The notes under the pieces were generated by a model, which worked only from the letters and a program-made list of their open reading frames with translations, made no database searches and was not told where the DNA came from. Made by a program: the position numbers and the translations under genes. Below are positions 4,068 to 64,000 of a stretch of 64,000 nucleotides of DNA, piece by piece. This DNA is from Bacillota bacterium (GTDB lineage: Bacteria; Bacillota; Sulfobacillia; Sulfobacillales; JAIMBI01), in contig JAKADP010000006.1 of the NCBI GenBank assembly GCA_021820465.1, forward strand, positions 425-64,424, given 5' to 3'. Position 1 is the stretch's first letter. Every line of letters starts with the position of its first letter.

Positions 4068-4123
4068 ATCTCACGCCGCCGCGAGCCTAGAGGAGGACCC
4101 GAGGAAGGAGCAGGGAAGCACAC

Positions 4124-5395
4124 ATGCTGGACATGCACATCCTGCGCCATGACCCGGAGCGGGTGCGGGACGGATACCGGGTGAAGCGGGTGGATCCGCC
4201 GTGGGAGCGGGTGGTGGCGCTGGACCGGCAGCACCGAGAGCTGCTGGGGACCCTGGAGGCCAAAAAGGCGGAGCGCAATCGCGCGACCGAGGCGGTGGCC
4301 CGGCTGCGCAGGGCGAAGGACCCTCACGCCGATGCCATTATCGCGGACATGCGCCGCCTGGGTGAGGAAATTCGCGCCCTGGAAGAACAGCATCGGCCGG
4401 TGGCCGAGGAGTTGGACCGGCTGGTGTGGGAGCTTCCCAATTTGCCCGACCCCAGCGTGCCGGAAGGCGCAGGCGAGGCGGACAATCCTGAAGTGGCGGT
4501 CTGGGGGACGCCGCGCGCGGACTCCCCGGACGTCACGCCCCACTGGGACCAAGGGCCCGCGCTGGGCATTTTGGACTTCGAGCGGGCGCAGAAGTTGGCG
4601 GGCGCACGCTTTGTGGTGTTAAAGGGGTTCGGTGCCCGGCTGTCGCGGGGGCTCATCCAGTTTATGCTGGCCGAGGCCGAGCGGGCCGGCTACGAAGAGG
4701 TGGCTCCCCCGCTCCTGGCGCTCGCGGACACGCTCTACGGGAGCGGCCAGTTTCCCAAATTCGTGGATGACGTGTTTCGCGTGAGCCCGCATGACCTGTA
4801 TTTGATTCCCACCGCTGAAGTGCCGCTGGTGAACCTGCGCCGTGAAGAGATACTGGATGCCGACGAGCTCCCCCTGCACTACACGGCGCACACCGCCAGC
4901 TTTCGGTCGGAAGCGGGCGCGGCGGGCCGGGACACGCGGGGGCTCATTCGCCGCCACCAGTTTGACAAGGTGGAGCTGGTGGCCGTGGCCCGGCCGGAAG
5001 AGGGGCTCCGGGAGCTGGAGGCCATGCGCCGGCAGTCCGCCCGCCTGCTGGAGCAGCTGGAGCTCCCGTACCGCACGGTAGAGCACTGCGGCGGGGATTT
5101 GGGGTTTGGGCATGCGAAATCCTACGACCATGAGGTGTGGATGCCCAGCTACGGCCGGTACGTGGAAATTAGCTCGGTCAGCCTCATGGGCGACTTTCAG
5201 GCGCGGCGCGCCAAGATGCGCTGGCGTGAGCGCGGCCCCCACGCCACCGGGTTTCCCGTCACGCTGAACGGCAGTGCCTTGGCCGTGGGCCGCACCATGG
5301 CCGCCATCATGGAGAACCACCAAACCGCCGGCGGCGGGTTTCGCCTGCCCGCCGCGCTGGCGCCGTTTGTCGGCGGCCGCACCGAGTTTCCCTGA
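4124..5395 (+). CDS. serS: seryl-tRNA synthetase
   Basis: 423 aa with an N-terminal coiled-coil arm and a class II core (FRSEAGAAGRDTRGLIRRHQFDKVE, GSALAVGRTMAAIMENHQ). Preceded by a Ser T-box. Confidence 0.95.
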   Translation: MLDMHILRHDPERVRDGYRVKRVDPPWERVVALDRQHRELLGTLEAKKAERNRATEAVARLRRAKDPHADAIIADMRRLGEEIRALEEQHRPVAEELDRLVWELPNLPDPSVPEGAGEADNPEVAVWGTPRADSPDVTPHWDQGPALGILDFERAQKLAGARFVVLKGFGARLSRGLIQFMLAEAERAGYEEVAPPLLALADTLYGSGQFPKFVDDVFRVSPHDLYLIPTAEVPLVNLRREEILDADELPLHYTAHTASFRSEAGAAGRDTRGLIRRHQFDKVELVAVARPEEGLRELEAMRRQSARLLEQLELPYRTVEHCGGDLGFGHAKSYDHEVWMPSYGRYVEISSVSLMGDFQARRAKMRWRERGPHATGFPVTLNGSALAVGRTMAAIMENHQTAGGGFRLPAALAPFVGGRTEFP

Positions 5396-9609: not shown

Positions 9610-12600
9610 ATGGATCGCAGTTTTTGGCATGGCGTGCAATTTTGGGTGGAGGCGCTGGATACCTGGGCCGTGGTGAGCCGGGTGGACGTGGAGGCGGCTA
9701 CCGTCCAGTACCGGGGACCGGCGGGCGTGGTGGCGGAGGAGCCCGTGGCGTGGGGCAGCGCCTGGTCGCATCCCGACGCCACGATGGCGGTGCTGAGTGC
9801 CCAGGTGGCCGTGCCCCCGGGCTCGGCCCGCCTGCTGGTCGACGTAGACGGTGAGGCGCTGCTGCGCGTGGACGGCCAGCCCGCCTGGGGGGTGAACCCC
9901 AACCATCGGGAAGCCGACTTGTCGCCGGAGGCCGGGCGGACTGTGGCCCTCACGCTGGAAGTGGTGCCGCGCGGCGCCTTTGGGCGGCCGCTGGCCAACC
10001 CCCAGCTGCGATCGATGGTGCTCCTGTCCATCGACCCTGCCATCGAGCGGGTCCGGTGGGACCTAGCGGTGCTGCGGGAGCTGGGCATGCGCAGCGCCAC
10101 GCCGCTGGCGGTGCGCAACTGGCTGTATTCGCGCGTGCTGGCGGTGGTGGGCCCGCTCATGGCGCTAAGCCCCGATTGGGCGGTGTGGGAGGCGCGGGAG
10201 CGCCGTCGGGCGGACGCCTCCGTGGAGGCGGGGCTGTACCAGCGGCTGGTGGCCCATCCAGGGCCGGTGGTGGGGCTGGAGAAGCTGGACCGCGCGGAGG
10301 CGACCCGCGCTATCCGGGCCGTGGGGGAGCGGCTCACAGCGCTTCGGGCCGAACTGGAGGCCAGCTGGCCCGAGGGGGTGGGGCGGCTGTTGGCCATCGG
10401 GCACGCGCACATCGACCTCGCGTGGCTCTGGCCGATTGGCGAGACCCGGCGAAAGATTTTGCGCACGGTGGCCACCCAAGACCGGCTGCTGGCGGCGGTT
10501 CCCGACTGGGGCTATCTCATGTCCAGCCCCGAGATGTGGCGGGGCGTGCAGGAGGGGGAGCCGGGTCTCTTCCAGCGCATGCAGGTCCAAACGCGGGCGG
10601 GTCGCCTGCAGCCGGCCGGCGCGACGTGGGTGGAGTGCGACGCCCAGCTGCCGTCGGCAGCAGCCGTGCTGCGCCACCTCAGGTACGCCGGCCGCTACTT
10701 CATGGCCGAGGCGCGCCAGCGCCCCCGCGTGGCGTTCTTGCCCGACACGTTTGGCTTTGCCGGCGGCTGGCCGACGCTGCTGCGGCTGGCCGGCGTCGAG
10801 ATGATGGTGACCACGAAGCTCCTGTGGAACGACACGACCCGATTTCCCTACACGGACTTTGGGTGGGTTGGGCCGGACGGCAGCCGGGTGGCGGTGCAGC
10901 TTTACGGCGGCGCGGCTGCGGGGTACAACGGCGATGGCACCCTGGGCGACTTGGACCGCGCGTGGGCCAACTACGAGGAGCGCGGCGGCACCGGCCGGGT
11001 TTTGTACACATTTGGCTTCGGAGACGGCGGCGGCGGGCCTACCCGCGAGATGCTGGAGCGCCTGCGCCGCTATCGGGGGCTGCCGCTCGCACCCCGCATT
11101 GAGTGGGGAACCTTGGAGGACCTCATTCCCGAAGAGCGGACGCTCAGCACCTGGCCCCAGCATCGGGGCGATCTGTATCTCGAGTACCACCGCGGGGTCT
11201 TTACGACGCAGACGGCGGTCAAGCGGGGAAATCGCCGCTTTGAGACGCGGCTGAACGCTGTGGAAGCCTGGTTGGCGCTCCTGGGCCGCGGGACCGATGG
11301 CATGGAGGATGCGTGGCGTCGGGTCCTTCGCAACCAGTTTCACGATATCCTGCCCGGCTCGTCCATTGCCGAGGTTTATCGAGACTGGCGGGACGACATG
11401 GCACAGGTGGCGTCGGTGGCTGATACCAGCTGGGCGTCCGTCAAGGCGTCTCTCCCGCTCGCCGGACCGGGTGATGTCCTCACCGTAGCCAATGCGGCGG
11501 GGGCCGCGGTGCCCGCCTCCCTCCAGGTGTTTCAAGCGGCCGGGCCCGTCGCGGTCGAGGTGGAAGGTGTCTGGCGGCAGGCCGAGCCGACGCACGACGG
11601 TCGGTATGTGGTGCCCGTGCCCGGGCAGTCGGCGCTGTCGGTGGCCCGCTATCCCGTGCGGGCCTCTGCGGCGGCCACCCCCTCCGCCGAGGCTCCCGCG
11701 TCGGAGGGGGATGCGGTGGCGGTCCCCCTGCCCCATGGACGGGTGGTGGTGGGACCCGAAGGCATCCGGAGTCTGGTGCACCAAGAGCGGGAGCTGCTGG
11801 CCGGGCCGTCGGGGGTGCGGGGCTACCTGGATCACCCGGCCCACTACGACGCGTGGGAGCTGTCGCCGCAGTACCGCGAGACCGAGGTGCCGTGGCACCA
11901 CGATCCGCTGGCGGTGGTGGAGCACCACGCTTGGCGGACCGTGGTGCGGCTCGTGCACCGCACGGGCTCCACGGTGGTCACGGAGCATGTGGCGGTGGAC
12001 CGCGTGCATGGGCGCGTGGCCACAGAAATCACGGCGGACGTGCGCGACCGGCACCTGGTGGTGCGCTGGGAGCTGGATACGACACTTCAGGCGGCGGCCG
12101 CCGAGGCCGAGGGCCTCTGGGGGATGTCGCGGCATCCGACGGTGCCCGAAGGGGAAAACGACGTGGCGGCCTTTGAGTGGGTGGCGCACCGCTTCGCCTC
12201 CCTGGCGGAGCCGGGGGCGGGCGTGGCCATCGCCAATGACGGCCGCTACGGCCATTCGGTGGACGGGGGCCGGCTGGGCGTCACCCTGTCCACCGCTCCC
12301 CTCTACCCGGACCCCGACGCGGACCAGGAGCCAGCGCCCGTCAGCCTCCTGATTGTGCCGCATGACGGCACGTGGGCCACGCCGGCCGTCCACGGGACGG
12401 CGCAGGGGTGGTCGCACGGCCTGGAAGCGGCGGTCGACACGCAGGCCGCACCTGGCCTGTATGCGCCGCTGGCGTCGCTGCCGCCCAATGTGCTGGTGCT
12501 GGGCCTGTGGCCGGCGTCGGACCAGTCGGGCGACCTAGTGCTGGCCCTGGGAGAGGCGTACGGCCGGCAGACGGACGCGGCCGTCACGCTGCCCATCCCG

Positions 12601-12753
12601 GGCGCAGGGGCGACGAGTGTGGACCCGGTCACCGAGGAGCCCAACGACGGCACGCGGGTGCGGTGGGACGCCGAGCGCCGCGAGGCGACGGTTAGCCTTT
12701 CGGCGTTTGGCATCGGGGTGCTGCGCTGGCAGGCAGCCTCGCCCCGCGCGTAG
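9610..12753 (+). CDS. GH38-family alpha-mannosidase
   Basis: About 1047 aa. GHAHIDLAWLWP and FLPDTFGF motifs of the GH38 N-terminal domain. CAGGAGG precedes ATG 9610. Confidence 0.85.
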   Translation: MDRSFWHGVQFWVEALDTWAVVSRVDVEAATVQYRGPAGVVAEEPVAWGSAWSHPDATMAVLSAQVAVPPGSARLLVDVDGEALLRVDGQPAWGVNPNHREADLSPEAGRTVALTLEVVPRGAFGRPLANPQLRSMVLLSIDPAIERVRWDLAVLRELGMRSATPLAVRNWLYSRVLAVVGPLMALSPDWAVWEARERRRADASVEAGLYQRLVAHPGPVVGLEKLDRAEATRAIRAVGERLTALRAELEASWPEGVGRLLAIGHAHIDLAWLWPIGETRRKILRTVATQDRLLAAVPDWGYLMSSPEMWRGVQEGEPGLFQRMQVQTRAGRLQPAGATWVECDAQLPSAAAVLRHLRYAGRYFMAEARQRPRVAFLPDTFGFAGGWPTLLRLAGVEMMVTTKLLWNDTTRFPYTDFGWVGPDGSRVAVQLYGGAAAGYNGDGTLGDLDRAWANYEERGGTGRVLYTFGFGDGGGGPTREMLERLRRYRGLPLAPRIEWGTLEDLIPEERTLSTWPQHRGDLYLEYHRGVFTTQTAVKRGNRRFETRLNAVEAWLALLGRGTDGMEDAWRRVLRNQFHDILPGSSIAEVYRDWRDDMAQVASVADTSWASVKASLPLAGPGDVLTVANAAGAAVPASLQVFQAAGPVAVEVEGVWRQAEPTHDGRYVVPVPGQSALSVARYPVRASAAATPSAEAPASEGDAVAVPLPHGRVVVGPEGIRSLVHQERELLAGPSGVRGYLDHPAHYDAWELSPQYRETEVPWHHDPLAVVEHHAWRTVVRLVHRTGSTVVTEHVAVDRVHGRVATEITADVRDRHLVVRWELDTTLQAAAAEAEGLWGMSRHPTVPEGENDVAAFEWVAHRFASLAEPGAGVAIANDGRYGHSVDGGRLGVTLSTAPLYPDPDADQEPAPVSLLIVPHDGTWATPAVHGTAQGWSHGLEAAVDTQAAPGLYAPLASLPPNVLVLGLWPASDQSGDLVLALGEAYGRQTDAAVTLPIPGAGATSVDPVTEEPNDGTRVRWDAERREATVSLSAFGIGVLRWQAASPRA

Positions 12754-12774
12754 CGCCAACCAGGGAGAGACGCT

Positions 12775-14178
12775 GTGGAGCCAACACGGGTCGACACCGG
12801 GGCCGTGCCACCGCTGGTGCGGGCGGTATGGGAGCTCCTGGCGCCTGCCGGCCCCACCTACGTGGTGGGGGGCGCCGCGCGGGACCTGATTCGCGGCCAG
12901 ACGCCGCACGATTGGGATATGGCCACCCGGCTGGCGCCTGACGACACGGTGGCCCTCGTGCGCCGGGCGCACCCCGAGTGGGCGCTGGGGTACGCCGGCA
13001 TCCGGTGGGGCACCGTCGTGATCCGCGGGGCCGACGGAGCCGGTGCCGTCGAGGTGACCAGCTTTCGCGCCGACGGGGTGTACCGGGATGGACGGCGGCC
13101 CACGTCTGTGCGGTTTGGCACGTCGTGGGCCGAGGACGCGTCGCGGCGGGACTTTACCATGAATGCGCTGGCTATTGACCTCGACGGCCACGTGGTGGAC
13201 ACGGTCGGCGGGCTCGCGGATCTAGCCGCCGGCCTCGTGCGCTCGGTGGGAGCGGCCGTCGACCGCTTTCGCGAGGACCCGCTCCGCATGTGGCGGGCGG
13301 TGCGCCTCTTGAGCCAGGGACCGTTTCACCTGGAGGAGGCCACCGCCCGCGCGATACGCGCGGAGCGCCCCCGCTTGGCGGTCGTGGCGGCGGAGCGGCA
13401 GGGCCAAGAGCTGAGCCGCCTTTTGGCCGCTCCCGACCGAGACGCCTTGGGCCGTGCGCTGGCCGTCCTGCAGGAGCTGGGCGTGTGGGACATCATCTGG
13501 CCCGAGTGGGCGGTGGCGCGTGGGTTTCCTCAAAACGGCCCTCCCGTCGATGCGCACTGCCTGGCCACGGCGGCATTCCTGCCCCCGGAGCTCAGGCTCG
13601 CGGGGCTGCTGCACGACATCGGCAAGCCCGTGTGTGCCCGACAGAATGCGGCCGGGTCGTGGCGGTTTGACGGGCACGAGCAGGTGAGCGCGGTGTGGGC
13701 GGCTGACATGTTGCGCCGCATGCGATTTCCCGCACGGACGACGGAAGATACGGCGTGGCTGGTGGCCCACCATGGATTCCGCTGGCGCCGCGCCACCCCC
13801 ACGGCGCTGCGGCGCCTCTGGGCCGGCGAGGGCGCCGGCCGCGTCCAGAGCCTGCTGGCGCTGTATGAGGCGGATGTGGCCGCATGGGGCGGACGGCTCC
13901 CGGCCCACCCTCGCACGCTCGCCGCCAAGCTGGAGGCGGCCGTCACCACCGATGCCCCGTATGGGCTGGATCTGGCCTGTACGGGCGACGATGTGCGGGA
14001 GTGGCTGGGGCTTGACCGCCCGAGCCGCGCCGTGGGCTCGGTGCTGGCGCATCTCCGCCGCGTGGTGATCGTGCATCCGGAGAACAACCATCGCGAGGCG
14101 CTGCGCCGGGAAGCACTCCAGTGGCAGCGCCGCCATGGGGAAGGTGCGCCGGCTCCGCCGCGGAGACCCGGCCCATGA
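12775..14178 (+). CDS. cca: CCA-adding enzyme / poly(A) polymerase-family nucleotidyltransferase with HD domain
   Basis: N-terminal GGAARDLIRG...DWD nucleotidyltransferase head and LLHDIGKP HD motif. GTG start. Confidence 0.8.
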   Translation: MEPTRVDTGAVPPLVRAVWELLAPAGPTYVVGGAARDLIRGQTPHDWDMATRLAPDDTVALVRRAHPEWALGYAGIRWGTVVIRGADGAGAVEVTSFRADGVYRDGRRPTSVRFGTSWAEDASRRDFTMNALAIDLDGHVVDTVGGLADLAAGLVRSVGAAVDRFREDPLRMWRAVRLLSQGPFHLEEATARAIRAERPRLAVVAAERQGQELSRLLAAPDRDALGRALAVLQELGVWDIIWPEWAVARGFPQNGPPVDAHCLATAAFLPPELRLAGLLHDIGKPVCARQNAAGSWRFDGHEQVSAVWAADMLRRMRFPARTTEDTAWLVAHHGFRWRRATPTALRRLWAGEGAGRVQSLLALYEADVAAWGGRLPAHPRTLAAKLEAAVTTDAPYGLDLACTGDDVREWLGLDRPSRAVGSVLAHLRRVVIVHPENNHREALRREALQWQRRHGEGAPAPPRRPGP

Positions 14179-55538: not shown

Positions 55539-55754
55539 GTGGACATCCGGATTATCCTAGAGCGTCATGAAGATGGATACGTCGCGTATCCCATTGGGAT
55601 TTGGGGCGTCATCATCGGGCAAGGGGACACAGCGGAAGAAGCCATGGCCGATGTCATGAGCGCCATAAAATTCCATGCGGAAACGTTTGGAGAAGCATCC
55701 TTGTGGTCGGACGACCGAGTGTTGCAGGTCGAACTGCGGGAAGCCCGCGTGTGA
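55539..55754 (+). CDS. hicB: HicB-family antitoxin-like protein (N-domain only)
   Basis: 71 aa. ERHEDGYVAYPIGIWGVIIGQGDTAEEAMADVMSAIKFH fits the HicB/UPF0150 fold signature. GAGGTG precedes GTG 55539. Confidence 0.7.
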   Translation: MDIRIILERHEDGYVAYPIGIWGVIIGQGDTAEEAMADVMSAIKFHAETFGEASLWSDDRVLQVELREARV

Positions 55755-55763
55755 TCATCTTAC

Positions 55764-56006
55764 CTACGCATCCCGAAGCGCCTCGAGAAATTCCTGGCGG
55801 GTTATCCCCGCTTGCCGGATAGCGGTCCGCAGCGTAGAGCCCTTGATAGTGGAATGGTTGGGAAGCGTCATGAGGGAGCGAGTTCCGTCGGAATTTTGCC
55901 TCTGCAAGGCAAGATGTGGCCCTGAACGGACTTCCACAAAGCCCAACACCCCCAAAGCCTTCAGGACGTCCCGGATGGGAGCATCTTTCGGAAATGCCGC
56001 GTTCAT
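55764..56006 (-). CDS. hicA: HicA-family mRNA interferase toxin
   Basis: 80 aa. IRDVLKALGVLGFVEVRSGPHLAL...TLPNHSTIKGSTLRTAIRQAGITRQEF matches the HicA pattern. ATG 56006 lies 10 nt after GAGGAG. Confidence 0.75.
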   Translation of the reverse strand: MNAAFPKDAPIRDVLKALGVLGFVEVRSGPHLALQRQNSDGTRSLMTLPNHSTIKGSTLRTAIRQAGITRQEFLEALRDA

Positions 56007-56013
56007 GGGTGTA

Positions 56014-56586
56014 TCACTCCTCGGCAAACGGTAGGGTCACGATGAAGCGGGCTAGGCGTTGTGCCTCGCCGGGCGACAAGTCCTCGGGAATTTGTAACGT
56101 GGCATCGAGTCCGGGTCTGACGGGAAAATTAATGGCGACGATGCGAATGCCCGTGGCTGCCCTGGGAGAATCGGCGATAGGTTGACTCGCGCGATGTCGG
56201 CTGGCGGCCCCTCGGGCCCTGCTTGGGGGCTGAGCAGTTCTGCGGTGAGTGCCTGTGGCGAGGCTGTCCCCGGCCAGCCACCGTAAGTATAGGTCGACGG
56301 CGGCTTTGAATCGTTGCGCATAGGTGTCGATGGTTCGGTCGTTGAATCTGGCGGTTCCGCGGTGCCGGTTGCGGAAGCGAATAGTCAACCCGTCGATGTC
56401 GGCCGTAGCTAGCGCGAGAGCATCCTGCTCACCGTCCAAGACACGGCGGCAAGCGTTTTGGAGAGCGGTAGCTCTGGCCCGCGGAAGCTCGCCCTTCTCG
56501 ATCGCATGGTCAAGGAATGCCCGTAGCCCGGCTACGGTGCCCGAGGAAGCGACGGACACATCGCCGTCCATTATCGGTGGGAGCAC
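56014..56586 (-). CDS. hypothetical protein, 190 aa, immediately upstream of hicA
   Basis: GTG 56586 behind CAGGAGGTG. Its stop lies 7 nt before the hicA ATG, and its last codons supply the hicA SD. The C-terminus reads FPVRPGLDATLQIPEDLSPGEAQRLARFIVTL. No family recognised. Confidence 0.6.
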   Translation of the reverse strand: MLPPIMDGDVSVASSGTVAGLRAFLDHAIEKGELPRARATALQNACRRVLDGEQDALALATADIDGLTIRFRNRHRGTARFNDRTIDTYAQRFKAAVDLYLRWLAGDSLATGTHRRTAQPPSRARGAASRHRASQPIADSPRAATGIRIVAINFPVRPGLDATLQIPEDLSPGEAQRLARFIVTLPFAEE

Positions 56587-56897
56587 TTCGCCACCTCCTG
56601 TACCCTAGAGTCAGGATCCCCGAGTCATCGGCATCATGCCACGATCCTCGGTCCGTATCCAATCGTCCTAATAAAATATTCTGTGCGACCGTCGCAAGTT
56701 ACCTTTTTTGTATGAGCAGCAAGGAGTTCAGCTGGCATCTGTGAGTACCGTCCTGTTAACAGAGTGATCGAGACCTGTCTGGACCGGAACATAGCGGCAA
56801 TGGCTCCGGGTTGTTTTAGGCTGCGCGACGGTCGTGAAACCGTTTCTGGGTAACCGTACGGGTGTGGTGGTGAGCTACGGGGCGGGGGCCCTGGCTA

Positions 56898-58134
56898 GTG
56901 TAGCCATTCCAAGTGTGTGACAGATTGGAGGGGGTGGGGTGCGCTGGGATCGTTCTTCGTGGGAGGTGATCCCGATGCCCCGTCCCCGCACGGTGCCGCG
57001 CTTGACCGTCAGTACCGCGGAGGTGACCTACCTGGACCGGGTGGCCCGTTCCCGCATGGCGCCCGTCTGCACGGTGCCGCGCGCCCGGATTCTCGCGGCG
57101 TATGGGGCTGGCGCCAGCGGCCCGGCGATTGCCGCGACCTGGGCGTGCCCCTGCCGACGGTGATGCGGTGTGTCAAGAAAGCGTTGGCGCTGGGGCCCCG
57201 GCGGGCGCTCGAAGACTTGCCCCGGGCGGGCCGCCCCCCGCGCATTACCGCAGAGACCCGGGCGTGGATCGTGAGCCTCGCGTGCCAAAAGCCCAAGGAT
57301 CTGGGCTGGGCCCCCGAGTGCTGGACCGAGTCCCTGCGCGCCCGCTACGTGCGCGAACACGCCGCGCCGGCCGGCCATCCCTCTGCGGGCCAGATCCAAC
57401 AGGGCACCCTCTCCAAGCTGTTGGCCGCGCAGGACCTGGACCCGCATCGGGTGCGGTACTACCTGCAACGGGAGGACCCCCATTTCGATGCCAAGATGGG
57501 CAGGTCTTGCACGTGTACCAGCAGGTGACCTTTGCCTTCAACCCCGAGGACACCGGCTCGCAGTGCGCTGGTCCTACGACGAAAAGCCGGGGATTCAAGC
57601 GCTACCGGCGATCGCCCGCGAAAGCCCGGGGTCGCCGACCAGGGCAGCTGGGAGCGGGATTATGAGTACCAACGCCTGGGCACCCGCACGCTGCTGGCCG
57701 GCATTGACCTAGCGACGGGCGAGGTGCTGGGGTTGGTGCGGGCCCGGCACCGGAGTCGGGAGTTCGTGGAGTGGGTGCAGGCGCTGGACGCGAAGTACGA
57801 CGCCAAGGTGAAGATCCAGGTGGTGCTGGACAACCATTCCGCCCACACCTCGCAGGAGACCCGACGCTACTTGGCCACCCAGCCCAATCGGTTCGCCTTC
57901 GTGCTTACCCCGGTCCACGCCTCCTGGCTGAACCTGATCATGGTGTTCTTCGCCAAACTGGCCAAGCAGTGCTTGCGGGGGATCCGCGTGGCGTCCGCGG
58001 AGGAACTCGAAACCCGCCTCCAGCAATACCTGGACGGGGTGAACCAGGACCCGGTCCCCTTTCGCTGGCGGTGGCGCTTCGAGTCCGCGGACCCGCCAGA
58101 CTCACAACAGGACGGCAGTTAGAAATGGATCTAC
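56898..58134 (+). mobile_element. IS630-family insertion sequence, transposase decayed
   Basis: Imperfect terminal IRs: GTGTAGCCATTCCAAGTG (left) and the reverse complement of CAGTTAGAAATGGATCTAC (right). Each is flanked by TA (56896-56897 and 58135-58136). The transposase pieces (HTH, RAGRPPRIT, SYDEKPGIQAL, DNHSAH, SWLNLI) are spread over three frames with an in-frame stop at 57529. Confidence 0.75.
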
Positions 58135-58702: not shown

Positions 58703-59854
58703 CTAGGGACCTCCCACGGCGTTGGCCCACGCGGGGGTAGTGGGAGCCGCGGCCGTCCGGGCGGCCAGCGGGCTCCAGCTGGGCTGGCCGGCCGGGTTCA
58801 AGGCGAGGCGGTATTCGGTGGTCTGCCGTGGGCGGCCCAAGACGAGCCGCTGGCCGCCCTCCAGCACCACGGTGGTTCGCAGAGGCACGAGGGTGGGCCA
58901 CACGCGGGAGGTCCAATGTAGCCCGCCGTCGGATGTGGCGTACAGCACAAGCTGCAGAGACGTGGCCGACGTCGGAATGGTCACGGGCACCCACACCACC
59001 CCCGTGGGGGACAAGCTGGGCGCGCCTTCCAGGATATTGGTGCTGGCCGCGCTTGGCGGCAGCTGGAGTGCCCGCGCCACCCAGGTGATGCCGCCGTTGG
59101 TGGTGGTCAGGATCCGGGCCGAATCGAAGGCCGGCGTGTTGATGGTCGCGATGCCCGATCCATCCCGGCGGAACGCTATGGCATTGACGTCCTCAAAGAG
59201 CGGGGAGTGCCCGGATGGCGCTTGGGATGCTTGCAGCAGCTGCCAGTGGCGGCCGCCGTCCACGGTGCCCAGCAGGGCATTCATCTGACTCCCGGCAAGG
59301 TCCTGAGATGTGAGGAGCATCCACCCGCGGCGGGCACTCACAAACTGGATTTGGAGAGACCCGCCGGCCACCGAGGATCCCCACGGCGATGCAAGTGGTG
59401 CGGTCCCACGCGTCCAGTGCACGCCGCGGTCGGTCGTTTCGTCAACCGTCACGGCGGTCCCGTGGGGCGGTTCAACGGCCACTACCGCCACGTTGGGGGC
59501 GGGGAACGCTTCCGCCACCGTGGCATCCCCTTGGCCGGCGCTCTGCCCTGATCCGCTGAGCGGTGCGCCCAAGGCCACGCGGGCCAACCCGGGCGGCCCG
59601 CTGCCCACCCACGATGTGCCGCCGCCGCGGGCCTCTACCGAGTTTGCCGGTGGCAGGGCCCACCCGCCTGCCGCTGAACCCGCCGCGATAAATGAGAAGG
59701 CGAGGGGGAGCCGCGGGCGGCGGGTTTCTGTCCTGGGCCGGGGCGGTGCCCCGGATGCCGTCGGGTGCAGCGCGGCGGGCCCGCACCCGGCCAGCAGGGC
59801 CGACGCCATCATCGCCATCATCGCGGCCGTCCGCCGCGGTGCTCCCTGCCCCAA
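58703..59854 (-). CDS. lipoprotein with BNR/Asp-box beta-propeller repeats, third paralog
   Basis: TTG 59854 lies 6 nt after GGAGG. Signal MGQGAPRRTAAMMAMMASALLAGC. Boxes TTDRGVHW, TVDGGRHW, TTNGGITW, TSDGGLHW. Confidence 0.7.
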   Translation of the reverse strand: MGQGAPRRTAAMMAMMASALLAGCGPAALHPTASGAPPRPRTETRRPRLPLAFSFIAAGSAAGGWALPPANSVEARGGGTSWVGSGPPGLARVALGAPLSGSGQSAGQGDATVAEAFPAPNVAVVAVEPPHGTAVTVDETTDRGVHWTRGTAPLASPWGSSVAGGSLQIQFVSARRGWMLLTSQDLAGSQMNALLGTVDGGRHWQLLQASQAPSGHSPLFEDVNAIAFRRDGSGIATINTPAFDSARILTTTNGGITWVARALQLPPSAASTNILEGAPSLSPTGVVWVPVTIPTSATSLQLVLYATSDGGLHWTSRVWPTLVPLRTTVVLEGGQRLVLGRPRQTTEYRLALNPAGQPSWSPLAARTAAAPTTPAWANAVGGP

Positions 59855-60150
59855 CCCGCACCTCCTCGGCCTCGTGCAGCTCGGGCGCGCGCCGGCGACC
59901 GCGCTGGGTTCTGCTTCTGACTCCTAAACGCCTGGATGGCCCGGCCTGTTGCGCGGCGAGAGAAGCGGGGCGGGGTTGAACCGGGCCAGCGGCGAGCCCT
60001 TGGCGTCGCCGCCGATCCCCAGCAAGAAGGGTGCCTTGGAGTGTGATTTCGGCGCCGCTGCGGTGGGGCTACCGCTTGAGGTGCTGGGAGAGCCGGTCAA
60101 ATTCGGCAGTGTCAATCTCGCCGCGCGCGAGGCGCGCCTCCAAGATCGCC
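59804..60150. repeat. direct repeat copy A (347 bp)
   Basis: Aligns without gaps to 62174..62520 at a constant offset of 2370 bp. I counted 17 mismatches by eye (about 95% identity). Confidence 0.85.
60069..60150 (-). pseudogene. 3-prime remnant of a SHOCT-domain gene (last 26 codons)
   Basis: Encodes AILEARLARGEIDTAEFDRLSQHLKR-stop, one substitution from the C-terminus of 62439..62699. No upstream part is present. Confidence 0.7.
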
Positions 60151-60784
60151 GACGATGTCCGGAGTCGTGGTGCAAAAAGGCGAGATTCCGCCGGGCCCCT
60201 AAGTCTAAAGAGAGCGTAACGGATCTGGGGGGGCGCACGTCAAGCCGGGAACGACGGGGATGGGGCGTTCGCCCTGCATGCATGGCGTCCATAGGGCGGC
60301 CCCAGGGCCGCGTGGGCGCCGGCCGCCCGTTGGGCTCGCTACATGGCCAGGTGGGACGAATACAAGCCTTCGCGGCGCAGATCCAGCCGCCGCGCGGGTC
60401 GGACCACCGGGCGGCAAACCGCGTGCGGTAGGAGAATTTGGCGCGGTCCCGGCGGAGGAGCACGCACACCGGATGCGCGGGCGCCGGCGCGTTCCGCCAA
60501 GGCGTACAGGCGAGGGAGTCCTGCCACGAGCCGAGGGTGATCACTTCGGGGTCGGGCACCGTCTCGAGGATCTCCCGCCGCCACTGGGGCAGCAGATGGT
60601 CTGGCGCCAGCACCAGCCATGGGTAGCCGCCGCCCCCTGCCGTCGGTGCGCCTCCCACGGCACCAGACCCATCGGGAGCGTCTTGCCACCCCCTGCTCGC
60701 CGATGACCAGCGCCCACGCTTCGCGTTGAAGCGTGGTGGCCAGCGCGCGGGGCAATATTTGAGGCTGCTGGGAGCAACGGTCAC
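60151..60784 (-). pseudogene. N-terminal stub of an SF2 (SNF2/DEAD-like) helicase, frameshifted and truncated
   Basis: ALVIGEQ / AGGGKTLPMG (Walker A) / YPWLVLAPDHLLPQWRREILE (motif Ia-like) lie in three different frames. The frame switches coincide with C5 runs at 60689-60693 and 60633-60637. The sequence ends at the repeat boundary. Confidence 0.45.
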
Positions 60785-60826
60785 CGTGTCGATATTGAGA
60801 GTGGGAGGCCTCGTCCCGCGACGCGG

Positions 60827-61311
60827 TTAGGAATCGGACGGGGATTGAAGGTCTTCCATCTCGACCTGGCGTGAATACGGGAACGGTTGCCGGACGAGAA
60901 CGCCCTCAACCTCATGGCCCAAGGGAAAGCCCTTGTCCCATGTCATTAAGTACTGGCACTTAGCTCGAATCGCGGACGCTATATGAATCGCATCGGGTCC
61001 CCGTAGTCCTCGCAGGCGTGAAAGTTTGCGGGCATGGCGGGCTACCGGTAGATCTACCTCTACCCAGTGGATAAATTTATGATGGAAGAAGGCGTCGACC
61101 ATCAAGTCGACCCGTGCCATGTCTTTAGACGAACGGACATCACCGTGGCCGCAGACCTCCGCATAAACCAGGGTGCTCGCGACAATGGCATAATGGCCTT
61201 GCTCGGCGCCCTCGAGAAGACGCCGAGCTACGTCGGCCTACCTGCTTCTCCCTTGATCACTGCTAAGTAGACGTTGGAATCCAGGTAAATGGGACCCGCT
61301 CCCTCATTCAT
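60827..61311 (-). pseudogene. PIN-domain (VapC-like) nuclease gene with a frameshift
   Basis: MNEGAGPIYLDSNVYLAVIKGEAGRP stops at 61228-61230. The next frame, open from 61237, continues with VARRLLEGAEQGHYAIVASTLVYAEV...GPDAIHIASAI...YLMTWDKGF. All four PIN acidic positions are visible. Confidence 0.7.
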
Positions 61312-62224
61312 TTCGGACCCACCGGATGTACTCGTCCGTTGACATCGAGCCTGTATACCAAGGCGCAATGCCGACCAAGTCAGCTACCGACGGCCCGTCT
61401 GATTCATCTGGGAGTCGTTCCAGCTGATCTACGTCCACGCTTAGGATCTGTCCCCGTCGGTTGCGCGTGACGGTGCCGAGTGCGCGGACGCGGTGGCCCA
61501 ATGCATCGCGGATCTCGTCGAGATGCTCCTTCGGGAACCGGCAGTTCACGGCGCGACGTGTCTCTTCGTCGTAGAGGCTTACGTGGCGCCCGCGTCGCAG
61601 GTTGATGATGTCCAACACCCCGACGGCTGAGCCAACTGTTTGCTCCACTGCCTCAATCGAGGCGCGTGCGTTGGCCACTACCGAGCCTGTGACCGGCTCT
61701 GGCTGGTCTGACAGGGCCGCGTTCGGAACGCGATAGCTAATGCCGCTGATGCCTTCTTGGAGGAAGTATTTACCTATTTTCACCAAGTGACCCGCAAGGG
61801 TCGGCGAAAAGAAGCGGGGCAGTTCCTCTGCCTCACGTAACTGGCGAATCCCATCCACTAGTCGCTGTGGCGTCTCCCCGCTAGCTACTCCTTCACGTCG
61901 TAGCACGGCGACGGCACTGCCGCTGCGAAGATCTTCGATGAGCCACTGGCTCGGAGGTGACTGAAGCGCCCGGTCAAGCTCGTCGAGCATTTGAAGGCTC
62001 GTCCGTAGAACGTCCAAGAATGCTCGTGCGGGGATGGCGCCGACACTTCCTTCCACTCGAACTTCCAGACGCGACTCAGGCACCTTGACCCCCTCTTCCA
62101 GCGCAACCTCTCCGGCTATTTTACGAAGAATTTGCGGGCAATGCGATGGGGGCATCAGCGGCGTCTCCCTCACCGCCATCGTCGCCATCATCGCGGCCGT
62201 CCGCCGCGGTGCTCCCTGCCCCAA
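61304..62224 (-). CDS. hypothetical protein (306 aa; 283 aa from its own ATG 62155), upstream partner of the PIN gene
   Basis: Intact ORF. The first 17 codons belong to repeat copy B and copy the lipoprotein signal start. An internal ATG at 62155 has its own GAGGGAGA SD. The stop overlaps the PIN ATG (ATGAATGA). No family recognised. Confidence 0.6.
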   Translation of the reverse strand: MGQGAPRRTAAMMATMAVRETPLMPPSHCPQILRKIAGEVALEEGVKVPESRLEVRVEGSVGAIPARAFLDVLRTSLQMLDELDRALQSPPSQWLIEDLRSGSAVAVLRREGVASGETPQRLVDGIRQLREAEELPRFFSPTLAGHLVKIGKYFLQEGISGISYRVPNAALSDQPEPVTGSVVANARASIEAVEQTVGSAVGVLDIINLRRGRHVSLYDEETRRAVNCRFPKEHLDEIRDALGHRVRALGTVTRNRRGQILSVDVDQLERLPDESDGPSVADLVGIAPWYTGSMSTDEYIRWVRNE

Positions 62225-62520
62225 CTCGCACCTCCTCGGCCTCGTGCAGCTCGGGCGCGCGCCGGCGACCCCGCTGGCTTCTGCTTCTGACTCCTAAACA
62301 CCTGGATGGCCCGGCCTGTTGCGCGGCGAGAGAAGCGGGGCGGGGTTGAACCGGTCCGGCGGCGAGCCCTAGGTCTCGCCGCCGATCCCCAGCAAGAAGG
62401 GTGCGTTGCGGTGTGATGTCGGCGTCGCTGCGGTGGGGCTACCGCTTGAGGTGCTGGGAGAGCCGGTCAAATTCGGCAGGGTCAATCTCGCCGCGCGCGA
62501 GCCGCGCCTCCAAGATCGCC
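62174..62520. repeat. direct repeat copy B (347 bp)
   Basis: See copy A. It covers the SHOCT gene 3-prime end, a 214-bp spacer and the first 17 codons of the downstream ORF. Confidence 0.85.
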
Positions 62521-62699
62521 AGGGCATCCGTGGGGCCGTAGGGCACCGGGCCGCAGCGATTCGGGCCATAGAATCCGCGGCGAGGCGAAAGCCAGCGCCA
62601 GAGGCCAAACGCCGCGGCCAAGATGACAATCCACCCGATCGGCCAGAACAACCACCATCCACCTGACCATCCACCTGACCATCCCCCGTATCCTGGCAT
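62439..62699 (-). CDS. SHOCT-domain small membrane protein
   Basis: 86 aa. Gly/Trp-rich N-terminus GGWSGGWSGGWW, one TM helix, and C-terminal ILEARLARGEIDPAEFDRL (SHOCT motif). Confidence 0.7.
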   Translation of the reverse strand: MPGYGGWSGGWSGGWWLFWPIGWIVILAAAFGLWRWLSPRRGFYGPNRCGPVPYGPTDALAILEARLARGEIDPAEFDRLSQHLKR

Positions 62700-63229
62700 C
62701 TTCCGTCCACTCCCTTGCGCATCTCATGTCTGGTACTGCGGGACCGCTACTGCCGCGGCTCGCGGACCGCCCCGCCATGATTTCACCGCGGGCCGCCGTG
62801 GCATGCCCCGTGGGGTCGGCGGCCATGGCACTGTCAGCATACGGAGGCCGACGAAGTCGCCGGTGGACGTGCCCTGTGCACACGGTGGGGATTTTGCCGC
62901 GGCGATGTGGCGATCGTGTGGAGGCGCCTGCGGGTGGCTGCCGACGTGCCCGCGTCGGCCATCCTGCCCCCGCGCGCGGCAGCAGGGCCTTGGCCGCTTC
63001 GCGCGGCGGTCGCCGCGGATTCTCATGGCCGCCTCAGCGCGGCCGAGTATACTATCGCGGACGAGATCGGCTTCGGAGGGTGGGGGTGCGACGTCTGGTG
63101 CCCGCGTGGCGTTAATCGGGGGAAGGCAGGCGCGCCTCCCACGCGGAGGCTCTGGACACCGTGGCCGCGCCGCAGGACGTTGGCGGAAGGGTGGGGGGAA
63201 CCGTGCAAGGTGCACTGGTTGGGGTGTCC

Positions 63230-64000
63230 ATGCTTTACTTATTGGTTTGCATTCCATACGCCATGCGCGTGTACGCGTTTGTCATCCTGGCGCTTCGCAC
63301 CGACGGTACCTCCGCGGTAGGGGGGCAGAACACCCGCGCCGCGATCTGGGGCCCCGCCAGCGTCACGGTGATCATCCCGGGCCGCAACGAAGCGCGGGTG
63401 CTGCCCGCCACCGTGCGTGCGGCGCTCGCGCAGGTCCTGCCGCCCTTCATTGGCCGCTACGAGGTATTGGTCGTGAACGACGGCTCCACGGACGACACCG
63501 GGTCGGTGCTGGACCACCTAGCCCAGGAGGCGCGCGGGCGCTTGCGCGTTATCCACCGCCCGGTGGCGCAGGGCAAGGCGTCGGCGCTGAACGAAGCCGT
63601 GAGGCAGGCGCGGGGGGACGTCCTGGTATTCATTGACGCGGACCATGTGCTGCGCCCCGACGCCGTGGCACGGCTGGCCGAGCCCCTGATCTCGGGAGCG
63701 GCCCACGTCGTCCAGGGCCGCTGCGTGGTGAGAAACCCTCACGTGAACCTGCTCACGCGTCTGGTCGAAATTGACAACACGGTGAGCTATGCGGTGGACT
63801 TGGCGGCCCGCTCCCAGTTGGGCACGTGCCCCATCACGGGATCCACCATGGCGATGACGCGGGTGGTGTGGGCACGTGTAGGGGGCTTCTGTGAGGATCG
63901 GCCGGGCGAGGACACCGACATGAGTCTTCGGATTATGCGCGAGGGGCTCCGCGTGCGCTATGAGCCCGACGCCGTCTCCGAGGACTTGGCCCCGGCCACG
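63230..64000 (+). CDS. family-2 glycosyltransferase (membrane-anchored, PgaC/cellulose-synthase-like), partial at the window end
   Basis: Not in the ORF track because it runs off the window. N-terminal TM, VIIPGRNE, VVNDGSTDDT, FIDADH (DxD). The start is ATG 63230 or GTG 63203. Confidence 0.75.
   Translation, partial: MLYLLVCIPYAMRVYAFVILALRTDGTSAVGGQNTRAAIWGPASVTVIIPGRNEARVLPATVRAALAQVLPPFIGRYEVLVVNDGSTDDTGSVLDHLAQEARGRLRVIHRPVAQGKASALNEAVRQARGDVLVFIDADHVLRPDAVARLAEPLISGAAHVVQGRCVVRNPHVNLLTRLVEIDNTVSYAVDLAARSQLGTCPITGSTMAMTRVVWARVGGFCEDRPGEDTDMSLRIMREGLRVRYEPDAVSEDLAPAT

Follow-up and report, generated by a model that had tools for sequence, protein, structure and literature searches.

The repeat pair and the DNA between its copies

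The DNA analysed here, referred to as the window, is a stretch of 64,000 nucleotides from contig JAKADP010000006.1 of an uncultured, high-GC (Thermaerobacter-like) Bacillota bacterium, and our subject is a long direct repeat towards its end, one copy of which (copy A, 59804..60150) lies at the start of a lipoprotein gene and the other (copy B, 62174..62520) at the end of a gene for a SHOCT-domain protein, both on the minus strand and with foreign DNA enclosed between them. We call the 347-bp repeat R and the 2,023-bp insert between its copies (60151-62173) U, so that the whole arrangement reads R-U-R. A repeat search and a base-by-base comparison showed that the two copies, of 347 bp each, align with no gaps at a constant offset of 2,370 bp and agree at 330 of 347 positions (95.1%), and this exact alignment bears out the 17 mismatches that a first-pass annotation of this DNA had reported. 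In copy A numbering the mismatches are found at 59811, 59856, 59901, 59908, 59930, 59985, 59988, 60001 and 60004, and then at 60005, 60035, 60039, 60040, 60048, 60055, 60110 and 60132. The ends of the repeat are sharp, identity dropping to background no more than one or two bases beyond either of them, and a 54-nt probe taken from the repeat found two sites in the 64-kb window, namely copies A and B, against none expected from shuffled sequences.

Read on the minus strand, each copy contains the last 26 codons and the stop of the SHOCT gene, a 214-bp spacer, an AGGAGG Shine-Dalgarno sequence (SD), and a TTG start with 17 lipoprotein codons reading MGQGAPRRTAAMMA(M/T)MA, contents that the first-pass annotation had described correctly. 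At copy B the SHOCT end belongs to the intact gene (62439..62699, minus strand, 86 aa), whose last 26 codons and stop lie inside the repeat, and whose product matches Pfam PF09851 at residues 58-79 with 28.1 bits against a cut-off of 27. At copy A, the same 26 codons and stop form a mere 3' stub, and the spacer and SD lead into the true start of the intact lipoprotein gene (58703..59854, minus strand, 383 aa), which encodes a signal peptide (MGQGAPRRTAAMMAMMASALLAGC) with an LAGC lipobox, read directly from the sequence, and a BNR/Ycf48-like beta-propeller with weak Pfam matches to BNR_2 and PSII_BNR. Orthologues of the lipoprotein, with 67-70% aa identity over residues 1-383, occur in two relatives (L001 and L002) and retain LLLGGC at the lipobox; the closest named relatives, at the same 67-70% aa identity, are in a Thermaerobacter sp. 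metagenome-assembled genome (MAG) and in MAGs labelled 'Bacillota bacterium'. The copy B spacer also holds a perfect hairpin with a 10-bp stem (62357..62384, minus strand; inverted repeat CGGCGGCGAG-ACCTAGGG-CTCGCCGCCG), and its copy A counterpart (59987-60014) is weaker and holds four of the five clustered differences, the fifth (59985) lying just outside.

The same R-U-R, with all 17 differences, is present in an independent NCBI MAG contig (L031, GCA_027343685.1) that is 99.6% identical, and the right two-thirds of it are present with the same junctions in a k=141 contig from ENA (L032); thus, the layout in the window is no assembly artefact. Neither does it resemble the target-site duplication of a transposon or insertion sequence (IS), given that the duplication measures 347 bp, that terminal inverted repeats are lacking at 60151 and 62173, and that the insert has no transposase gene. 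No integrase or recombinase gene was found in 59804-62520 or its neighbours, as judged from the open reading frame (ORF) list and Pfam. The spectrum of mutations between the repeats, namely the transition to transversion ratio, the GC-to-AT direction and the fraction of G-C exchanges, is the same as in other comparisons within the lineage, and so does not discriminate between models of origin.

The first gene of the insert is part of a 306-aa ORF (61304..62224, minus strand) made of the 17 lipoprotein codons of copy B, 30 read-through leader codons and a 259-aa gene. The native start of the latter is the GTG at 62083, preceded by GAAGAGGGGG: the 306-aa ORF has 50 homologues of about 263 aa, which account for 84% of its length and whose N-termini come into register at MxESRLEVRVEG, the position of this GTG, and a donor-like element discussed below (L029) encodes 259 aa from the same codon. 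The 306-aa protein with its own SD and an ATG at 62155, as first annotated, was therefore a misreading. One reason why the 47 upstream codons are in frame with the gene is the lack in the window of a single G at 62117, which is present in L029 and in a second donor-like contig (L030). Between the window and L030, the 259-aa gene has 4, 4 and 14 substitutions at the first, second and third codon positions, a pattern indicating that it is under purifying selection. The protein has no sequence match in Pfam, NCBIfam, PADLOC or PDB, and its family has no tblastn match in PLSDB plasmids and none in IMG/VR; an AlphaFold2 model (predicted local distance difference test score, pLDDT, 83.7) has a C-terminal beta-barrel with weak matches to OB folds.

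Immediately downstream lies a PIN-domain pseudogene (60827..61311, minus strand), whose ATG overlaps the stop of the 259-aa gene by 8 nt (ATGAATGA). It consists of two ORF pieces, separated by a frameshift that is due to the loss of 1 nt at 61236, when compared with L029 and L030, and that is common to all occupied strains, and its repaired translation matches Pfam PIN (PF01850) at 1.7e-12. In L030 the PIN gene is intact, with 161 aa, and in L029 it carries a different deletion, of 13 nt, so that separate events inactivated it in the lineage of the window and in L029. The gene of the window does not qualify as a VapC-like toxin with an intact frame, since the domain is recognised only after repair, nor does the pair qualify as VapBC-type, as the partner has 259 aa, matches nothing in Pfam, NCBIfam or PADLOC, and so has no recognised DNA-binding domain of a small antitoxin. 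The coupled pair, a protein of 259-263 aa followed by a PIN gene, is found at 62083-60827 (minus strand) in the window, and also at 6001-7258 in L024, 6001-7273 in L027 and 233-1397 in L030. It recurs on integrative elements of Actinomycetota and high-GC Bacillota, and it may represent a PIN partner or antitoxin of a kind so far undescribed.

The remainder of U is made of two further segments. First, a fragment of an SNF2-like helicase gene (60373..60750, minus strand) corresponds in blastn to positions 5562-5941 of L029, with 91.6% identity and indels. The joint between this fragment and the PIN-proximal segment (J2, 60743-60750) shows a short CCGCGCT-like microhomology. Second, an orphan segment of 222 bp (60151..60372, minus strand) directly abuts the SHOCT stub at junction J4 (60150/60151), where the first-pass annotation had placed the helicase fragment. 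It has a terminator-like hairpin and T-run (60179-60192), located by a terminator scan 29 nt before copy A. The segment matches nothing else in the window or in any fetched locus, a 34-mer from it has no match in IMG/VR, and a protein search with a spurious 286-aa ORF running across it returned only its own strain variant. At the other end of the insert, an alignment of the window with L029, L030 and a further contig (L020) places junction J1 (62167..62173, minus strand) at the 7 nt GTGAGGG that separate the end of the repeat at 62174 from the start of donor-like homology at 62166.

From that point the window is related to the two donor-like contigs, which were reached through members of the same 90% protein cluster as the 259-aa protein: 62166-60743 is 95-96% identical at the nucleotide level to L029 (a 19.8-kb JGI metagenome contig) and to L030 (Logan). 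The gene order in L029 is the 259-aa/PIN pair, a DUF6094 methyltransferase, a 907-aa SNF2-like helicase, an AAA_24 ATPase and a DUF3854 protein. Since 60750-60373 matches the interior of the helicase gene, about 1.96 kb of an L029-type element is missing at J2, comprising the DUF6094 gene and the 5' part of the helicase gene, and past L029 position 5941 the window changes to the orphan 222 bp. Divergence from the donor-like element is 2.8-4.1% in the two genes and 8.5%, with indels, in the helicase fragment, and the GC content is 0.59 at 61-62 kb against 0.67-0.72 in adjacent 1-kb intervals. More distant members of the family adjoin tyrosine integrase (L027, L024), relaxase and RepSA/FtsK genes of integrative elements. 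In L029 itself, the donor-like element is flanked or interrupted by transposase genes, an IS256-type gene in two pieces upstream (1-2026) and an rve-type gene downstream (12229-13032), so that its own ends could not be placed. The insert U is thus foreign, a decayed, truncated and internally deleted fragment of DNA resembling an integrative or conjugative element, and not a self-contained cassette. Of the 'PIN cassette' that had been said to use the SHOCT-lipoprotein junction as a landing site, therefore, the landing site and the foreign origin hold, and the cassette proves to be such a fragment, with a dead PIN gene.

Empty sites and variation among strains

The first-pass annotation had pointed to relatives as the place to look for an empty SHOCT-lipoprotein site, and such sites exist at two distances. 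In L001, a distant relative with about 79% nucleotide identity, the lipoprotein gene comes directly after the SHOCT gene (4091-4354 for the latter), and the L001 sequence forms the continuation of copy B to the left and of copy A to the right, left and right being taken as the genes are read. In L023, a Logan contig (SRR25885108), the SHOCT gene, a single repeat and the lipoprotein gene follow each other, with no mismatch to the window in 384 and 535 bp of flank and with one private single-nucleotide polymorphism (SNP) inside the repeat. The adjacency of these two genes as the ancestral arrangement is thus supported by sequence comparison. Of the 17 diagnostic sites, the 12 on the left (60132-59985) have the copy B state in L023 and the five on the right (59930-59811) the copy A state, so that copy B differs from L023 only at the right sites and copy A only at the left ones; both allele switches relative to L023 fall between 59985 and 59930.

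Further contigs from this population, in which the flanks of every sampled strain show 99.7% identity or more, add other versions of the locus. L021, from ENA and from the same sample as L032, has the L023 repeat allele over its extent, with two private SNPs and no IS. L022, a second Logan contig, is copy-B-like to 59901 and copy-A-like at 59856, and ends one base short of site 59811; it is possible that it represents a second deletion product with a different crossover (59901-59856). Three of these contigs (L021, L022 and L020) end inside the repeat, and the SHOCT protein is identical in L021, L022 and L023. In L020 and L032, both from ENA, an IS is inserted at 62372/62373, in the loop of the copy B spacer hairpin, and the window is free of it. 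This state is seen at positions 1-484 of L020 and 1-33 of L032, with the transposase N-terminus reading MRLMKKKIKGHTYWYLVESARINGQPRITW; the element looks IS1634/IS4-like, although the 84-aa piece has no Pfam or NCBIfam match. L020 had been a candidate for the donor context, given 484 nt of unrelated sequence upstream of its repeat, and was rejected on recognising there the end of the IS and the transposase N-terminus in the hairpin loop, with the same junction in L032.

Over some 2.8 kb, the window differs from L032 in patches only. First, at the five clustered hairpin sites of copy A (60005-59985) L032 has the copy B state, a clustering with a chance probability of about 0.0007. Second, 12 sites within 61382-61580, inside the 259-aa gene, differ in such a way that the window agrees with L029 and L030 and L032 has a third allele, and L020 carries a nested, shorter patch of six sites within the same interval; these patches are evidence that sequence was imported, in the manner of gene conversion, from other copies of this gene. 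Third, the IS630 copy beyond the lipoprotein gene differs between the window and L032. The switch points vary as well among the window, L032 and L022, copy A of L032 switching at 60035-60005. Visibly, then, change in this population proceeds by recombination patches and not by point mutation. That the repeats keep recombining is partly shown by these alleles, with deletion forms and at least one conversion tract, and the population is polymorphic for occupied, empty and IS-disrupted states. Recombination between the repeats had been suggested on first reading, and sister strains do carry deletion alleles of the kind then predicted.

Origin of the insertion

We favour, with somewhat less than even confidence, the reading in which one reciprocal crossover of the Campbell type took place with an incoming molecule that already carried a copy of the SHOCT-lipoprotein junction diverged by 4.9%. 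In what follows, 'resident' denotes the L023 allele, and 'x-type' the complementary halves, namely the left half of copy A and the right half of copy B. The incoming molecule, either a circle or an element linearised within the homology, would have carried a junction copy some 4.9% diverged from the resident one, and a single reciprocal homologous crossover would have occurred inside the 54-nt stretch that is identical in both alleles (59931-59984). Copy B would then consist of resident sequence on the left and incoming sequence on the right, and copy A of incoming sequence on the left and resident sequence on the right. The inserted DNA may have been a remnant already, or it may have been trimmed later by microhomology deletions.

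In favour of this reading, the two copies are exact reciprocal chimeras relative to L023, with both switches within one shared 54-nt stretch, since a single crossover forces both switches into the same interval. A Campbell-type capture had been proposed in the first-pass annotation for a circle of 2.37 kb; the reciprocal pattern does fit a single crossover, whereas the data show neither a circle nor that size. A second line of evidence comes from the SHOCT stub, in which two of 82 nt differ, compared with 10 of the 84 nt of spacer next to it (Fisher p = 0.03). One of the two is synonymous, and at the other the stub keeps the Thr of the outgroup L001 and the live gene has a derived Pro. These figures hint that the non-resident halves evolved elsewhere as a working allele and did not decay in place. 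RecA-dependent deletion is expected to remove dispensable DNA quickly when perfect 347-bp repeats enclose it, and repeats that were diverged from the start are more stable.

Several points weigh against a single crossover of this kind. The x-type allele does not appear in the collections searched: no x-type SHOCT or lipoprotein protein is present in a collection of 15 billion proteins, and the 90% clusters have neither a variant lipoprotein N-terminus nor a SHOCT variant; an exact 26-mer from the repeat has no match in JGI metagenomes or in IMG/VR; a lipoprotein search of the JGI metagenomes gave only relatives of 36% identity or less; and the protein search found no relative between 100% and 70% identity. 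As its flanks equal those of the window, moreover, L023 may be a recent repeat-by-repeat deletion product, in which case its mosaic is automatic and uninformative as to how the two copies first diverged, and as L022 is apparently a second such product, deletion would be sufficient to explain every empty allele; both L023 and L022 are Logan contigs, known at the level of assembly only. The Campbell model also requires a prior illegitimate event that put 347 bp of sharp-ended chromosome on the incoming molecule, and indeed every import model shares the need for an earlier illegitimate joining of these 347 bp to the insert. L029 and L030 have no junction segment upstream of the 259-aa gene, and no contig was found with the orphan-repeat-259-aa junction that a circular or permuted form would have. 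Finally, the statistical hints are weak, with p of about 0.03 and three polarisable sites.

The strongest competitor, a serious one although we consider it less likely, is a duplicative insertion in place, whereby one illegitimate event copied pieces of an element and re-copied the 347-bp target, the 17 differences accruing later. Template switching during replication, microhomology-mediated break-induced replication and fill-in at staggered breaks are candidates for such an event, which has the merit of yielding both sharp junctions and the duplication at once. At least three segments make up the insert, with microhomology at J2, as serial template switches would give, and the greater decay of the helicase fragment relative to the two genes suggests a long residence as junk. 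As the flanks of the sampled strains are so nearly identical, their common ancestor may well have been occupied, and L023 and L022 would then fit two deletions with different crossovers. The frameshift in the PIN gene of all occupied strains also speaks for this reading: a 259-aa/PIN addiction module would have kept the structure, and after the frameshift deletion by the repeats would have become viable, leading to L023 and L022. Free decay in place, however, would not be expected to change a dead SHOCT stub five times less than the adjoining spacer and to leave it with the ancestral Thr, nor to produce 17 substitutions with no indel in 347 bp. Perfect repeats of this length would also have been unstable unless the putative addiction module worked, and point divergence among the strains is nearly nil, differences arriving instead as imported patches.

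Two further readings also invoke movement between strains, and we find both of them improbable. In the first, R-U-R would have arisen, with x-type sequence in both copies, in a sister lineage some 5% diverged, and the lineage of the window would have acquired it through transformation, transduction or conjugation as part of a linear piece of chromosome, each repeat undergoing one crossover. In this population, mosaic imports from diverged homologues are visibly common, PMC13344027 describes discontinuous donor segments after natural transformation in Bacillus subtilis, and two independent crossovers would allow copy A of L032 to switch elsewhere (60035-60005) than its copy B. Nevertheless, that both switches in the window should lie in the same interval between sites, 220 nt or less from the insert, would be a coincidence given kilobases of homology; the flanks have no x-type tract, the window being equal to L023 outside the repeat; and the L032 pattern is equally well a later conversion tract of 21 bp. 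In the second, the 2,370-bp unit would be a recombinase-free mobile cassette that cycles between chromosome and circle by means of host RecA, with the host-derived 347 bp as a portable attachment site, spreading between related strains and retained by a novel addiction pair of the OB-fold-like 259-aa protein and the PIN nuclease. If this were true, the alleles observed, whether empty, occupied or crossed over at different points, would represent stages of that cycle.

Site-specific integration is more doubtful still. It would make the repeats attL and attR, with a long replacement copy of the target on attP, and the integrase and most of the element would have been deleted since. Elsewhere the 259-aa/PIN pair does lie at the edge of an integrative element beside a tyrosine integrase (L027, L024), the allele switch adjoins a perfect hairpin, and crossover by an integrase at a core would give a reciprocal mosaic. 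Against this stand the lack of any integrase or recombinase gene in or beside the insert, switch points that differ between strains, unlike a fixed core, a repeat whose 347 bp over two gene ends far exceed the usual att identity, and the existence of elements of the L029/L030 type with no such segment. These are metagenome assemblies with several contigs ending in the repeat, which would allow R-U-R or the empty allele to be a strain mis-join, but this is barely credible: R-U-R has the same junctions in the window, in L031 and, in part, in L032, and L023 crosses both repeat forks with its private SNP, where a unitig-based assembler would, we infer, normally stop. A tandem duplication followed by replacement, also raised in the first-pass annotation, was rejected as unsupported, since the 222 bp beside the stub should then match the chromosome downstream of the lipoprotein gene, and they match nothing in the window or the fetched loci.

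Neighbourhood, consequences and related systems

The surroundings of the locus are variable too. Beyond the lipoprotein gene come a HAD-like gene and the IS630 copy, and on the far side of these two genes lies a second accessory patch (55539-58122, GC about 0.61), composed of a HicB-like ORF (55539-55754, plus strand) and a HicA-like ORF (55764-56027, minus strand), both labelled by eye and with no NCBIfam match, an uncharacterised 190-aa ORF (56014-56586, minus strand) and the IS630 element, which has a frameshift (56917-58122) and differs by 8.5% between the window and L032. L001 has a different gene, of 339 aa, in place of this patch. On the other side, a comparison of 62700-63235 of the window with 944-4091 of L001 shows that L001 holds about 3 kb extra between the glycosyltransferase and SHOCT genes, in which an alpha/beta-hydrolase-like ORF, a histidine kinase and a response regulator were recognised by eye from the translations. 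L002 is entirely without the SHOCT gene, and the whole neighbourhood varies between species. Among close strains, a 20-nt segment at 62949-62968 (GGGCAGGATGGCCGACGCGG, between short GCGGG repeats) is present in the window and lacking in L031 and L021, which also have in common two substitutions near it (63161-63162; 62921). Rfam found no structured RNA in 55-64 kb, and a scan for the sigma-70 consensus found no promoters, although such a scan is uninformative for a high-GC organism.

For the host genes, the outcome is that the SHOCT gene, preserved by copy B, and the lipoprotein gene, preserved by copy A together with the region upstream of it, are both intact; neither was broken because the target segment is duplicated. 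The upstream region of the lipoprotein gene in copy B, with its SD and TTG, now faces the 259-aa gene in frame, as read from the sequence, and a fusion protein could be made from this TTG. The terminator of the orphan segment, if it acts as predicted, would be expected to block transcripts from running on towards the SHOCT stub and the true lipoprotein gene, and the repeats themselves would provide a built-in route for loss of the insert. The locus is a well-documented but ordinary gene-transfer scar, of a known kind, and no general view is changed by it. Its value lies elsewhere: it is a clean natural example of foreign DNA added between two genes with neither broken and with the scar still recombinationally active; its near-identical strains with occupied, deleted, patch-converted and IS-hit versions offer a worked case for the population genetics of insertion scars at the metagenome level; and it points to an unannotated gene pair, of a 259-263-aa protein and a PIN protein, that may be a new kind of PIN partnership.

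Four known systems invite comparison. First, as in VapBC modules, the PIN gene lies downstream of its partner gene and overlaps it, by 8 nt, the pair is carried on mobile elements, and the toxin-like PIN gene has been inactivated independently in two lineages; unlike in VapBC, the partner has 259-263 aa instead of 70-90 aa and, in place of a recognised antitoxin DNA-binding domain, a weak OB-fold-like beta-barrel in the model. Second, prophage e14 and phage 21 at icd of E. coli, and SXT at prfC, are elements that bring a replacement copy of the end of their target gene. The present locus resembles them in that a diverged second copy of a gene end lies on either side of the insert, with the host gene reconstituted and a displaced stub remaining, but those elements use an integrase and a short fixed core, in contrast to the variable switch points and lack of an integrase found here.

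Third, PMC5361080 discusses homology-facilitated illegitimate recombination (HFIR), a 'trapping of foreign DNA' in transformation for which de Vries and Wackernagel (2002), Prudhomme et al. (2002) and Meier and Wackernagel (2003) are cited there, and proposes HFIR for arrays of orphan immunity genes in type VI secretion system (T6SS) clusters of Vibrio and for Rhs loci. As in HFIR, the foreign DNA enters at a conserved gene end and leaves a 3' stub of the neighbour, the junctions being sharp and illegitimate, with hardly any homology, if any, to be seen at J1 and J4. HFIR, however, normally relies on a single homologous anchor, and recipient DNA is replaced or deleted in the process, whereas here the target is duplicated on both sides and the recipient has lost nothing.

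The fourth is Campbell-type, or 'ends-in', integration, in which a non-replicating plasmid or circle enters by way of a cloned chromosomal segment, as suicide vectors do, and as is known for the integration of F-primes and episomes. The present case departs from it in that no replicon, vector backbone or circular form was observed, that the incoming allele is unsampled and that the insert is decayed. It has the following features in common with such integration, namely, direct repeats of the homology segment that flank the insert and, if L023 represents the resident allele, are reciprocal chimeras of resident and incoming sequence, a segment that spans the 3' end of one gene and the 5' end of the next so that both genes are intact, and reversibility by recombination between the repeats.

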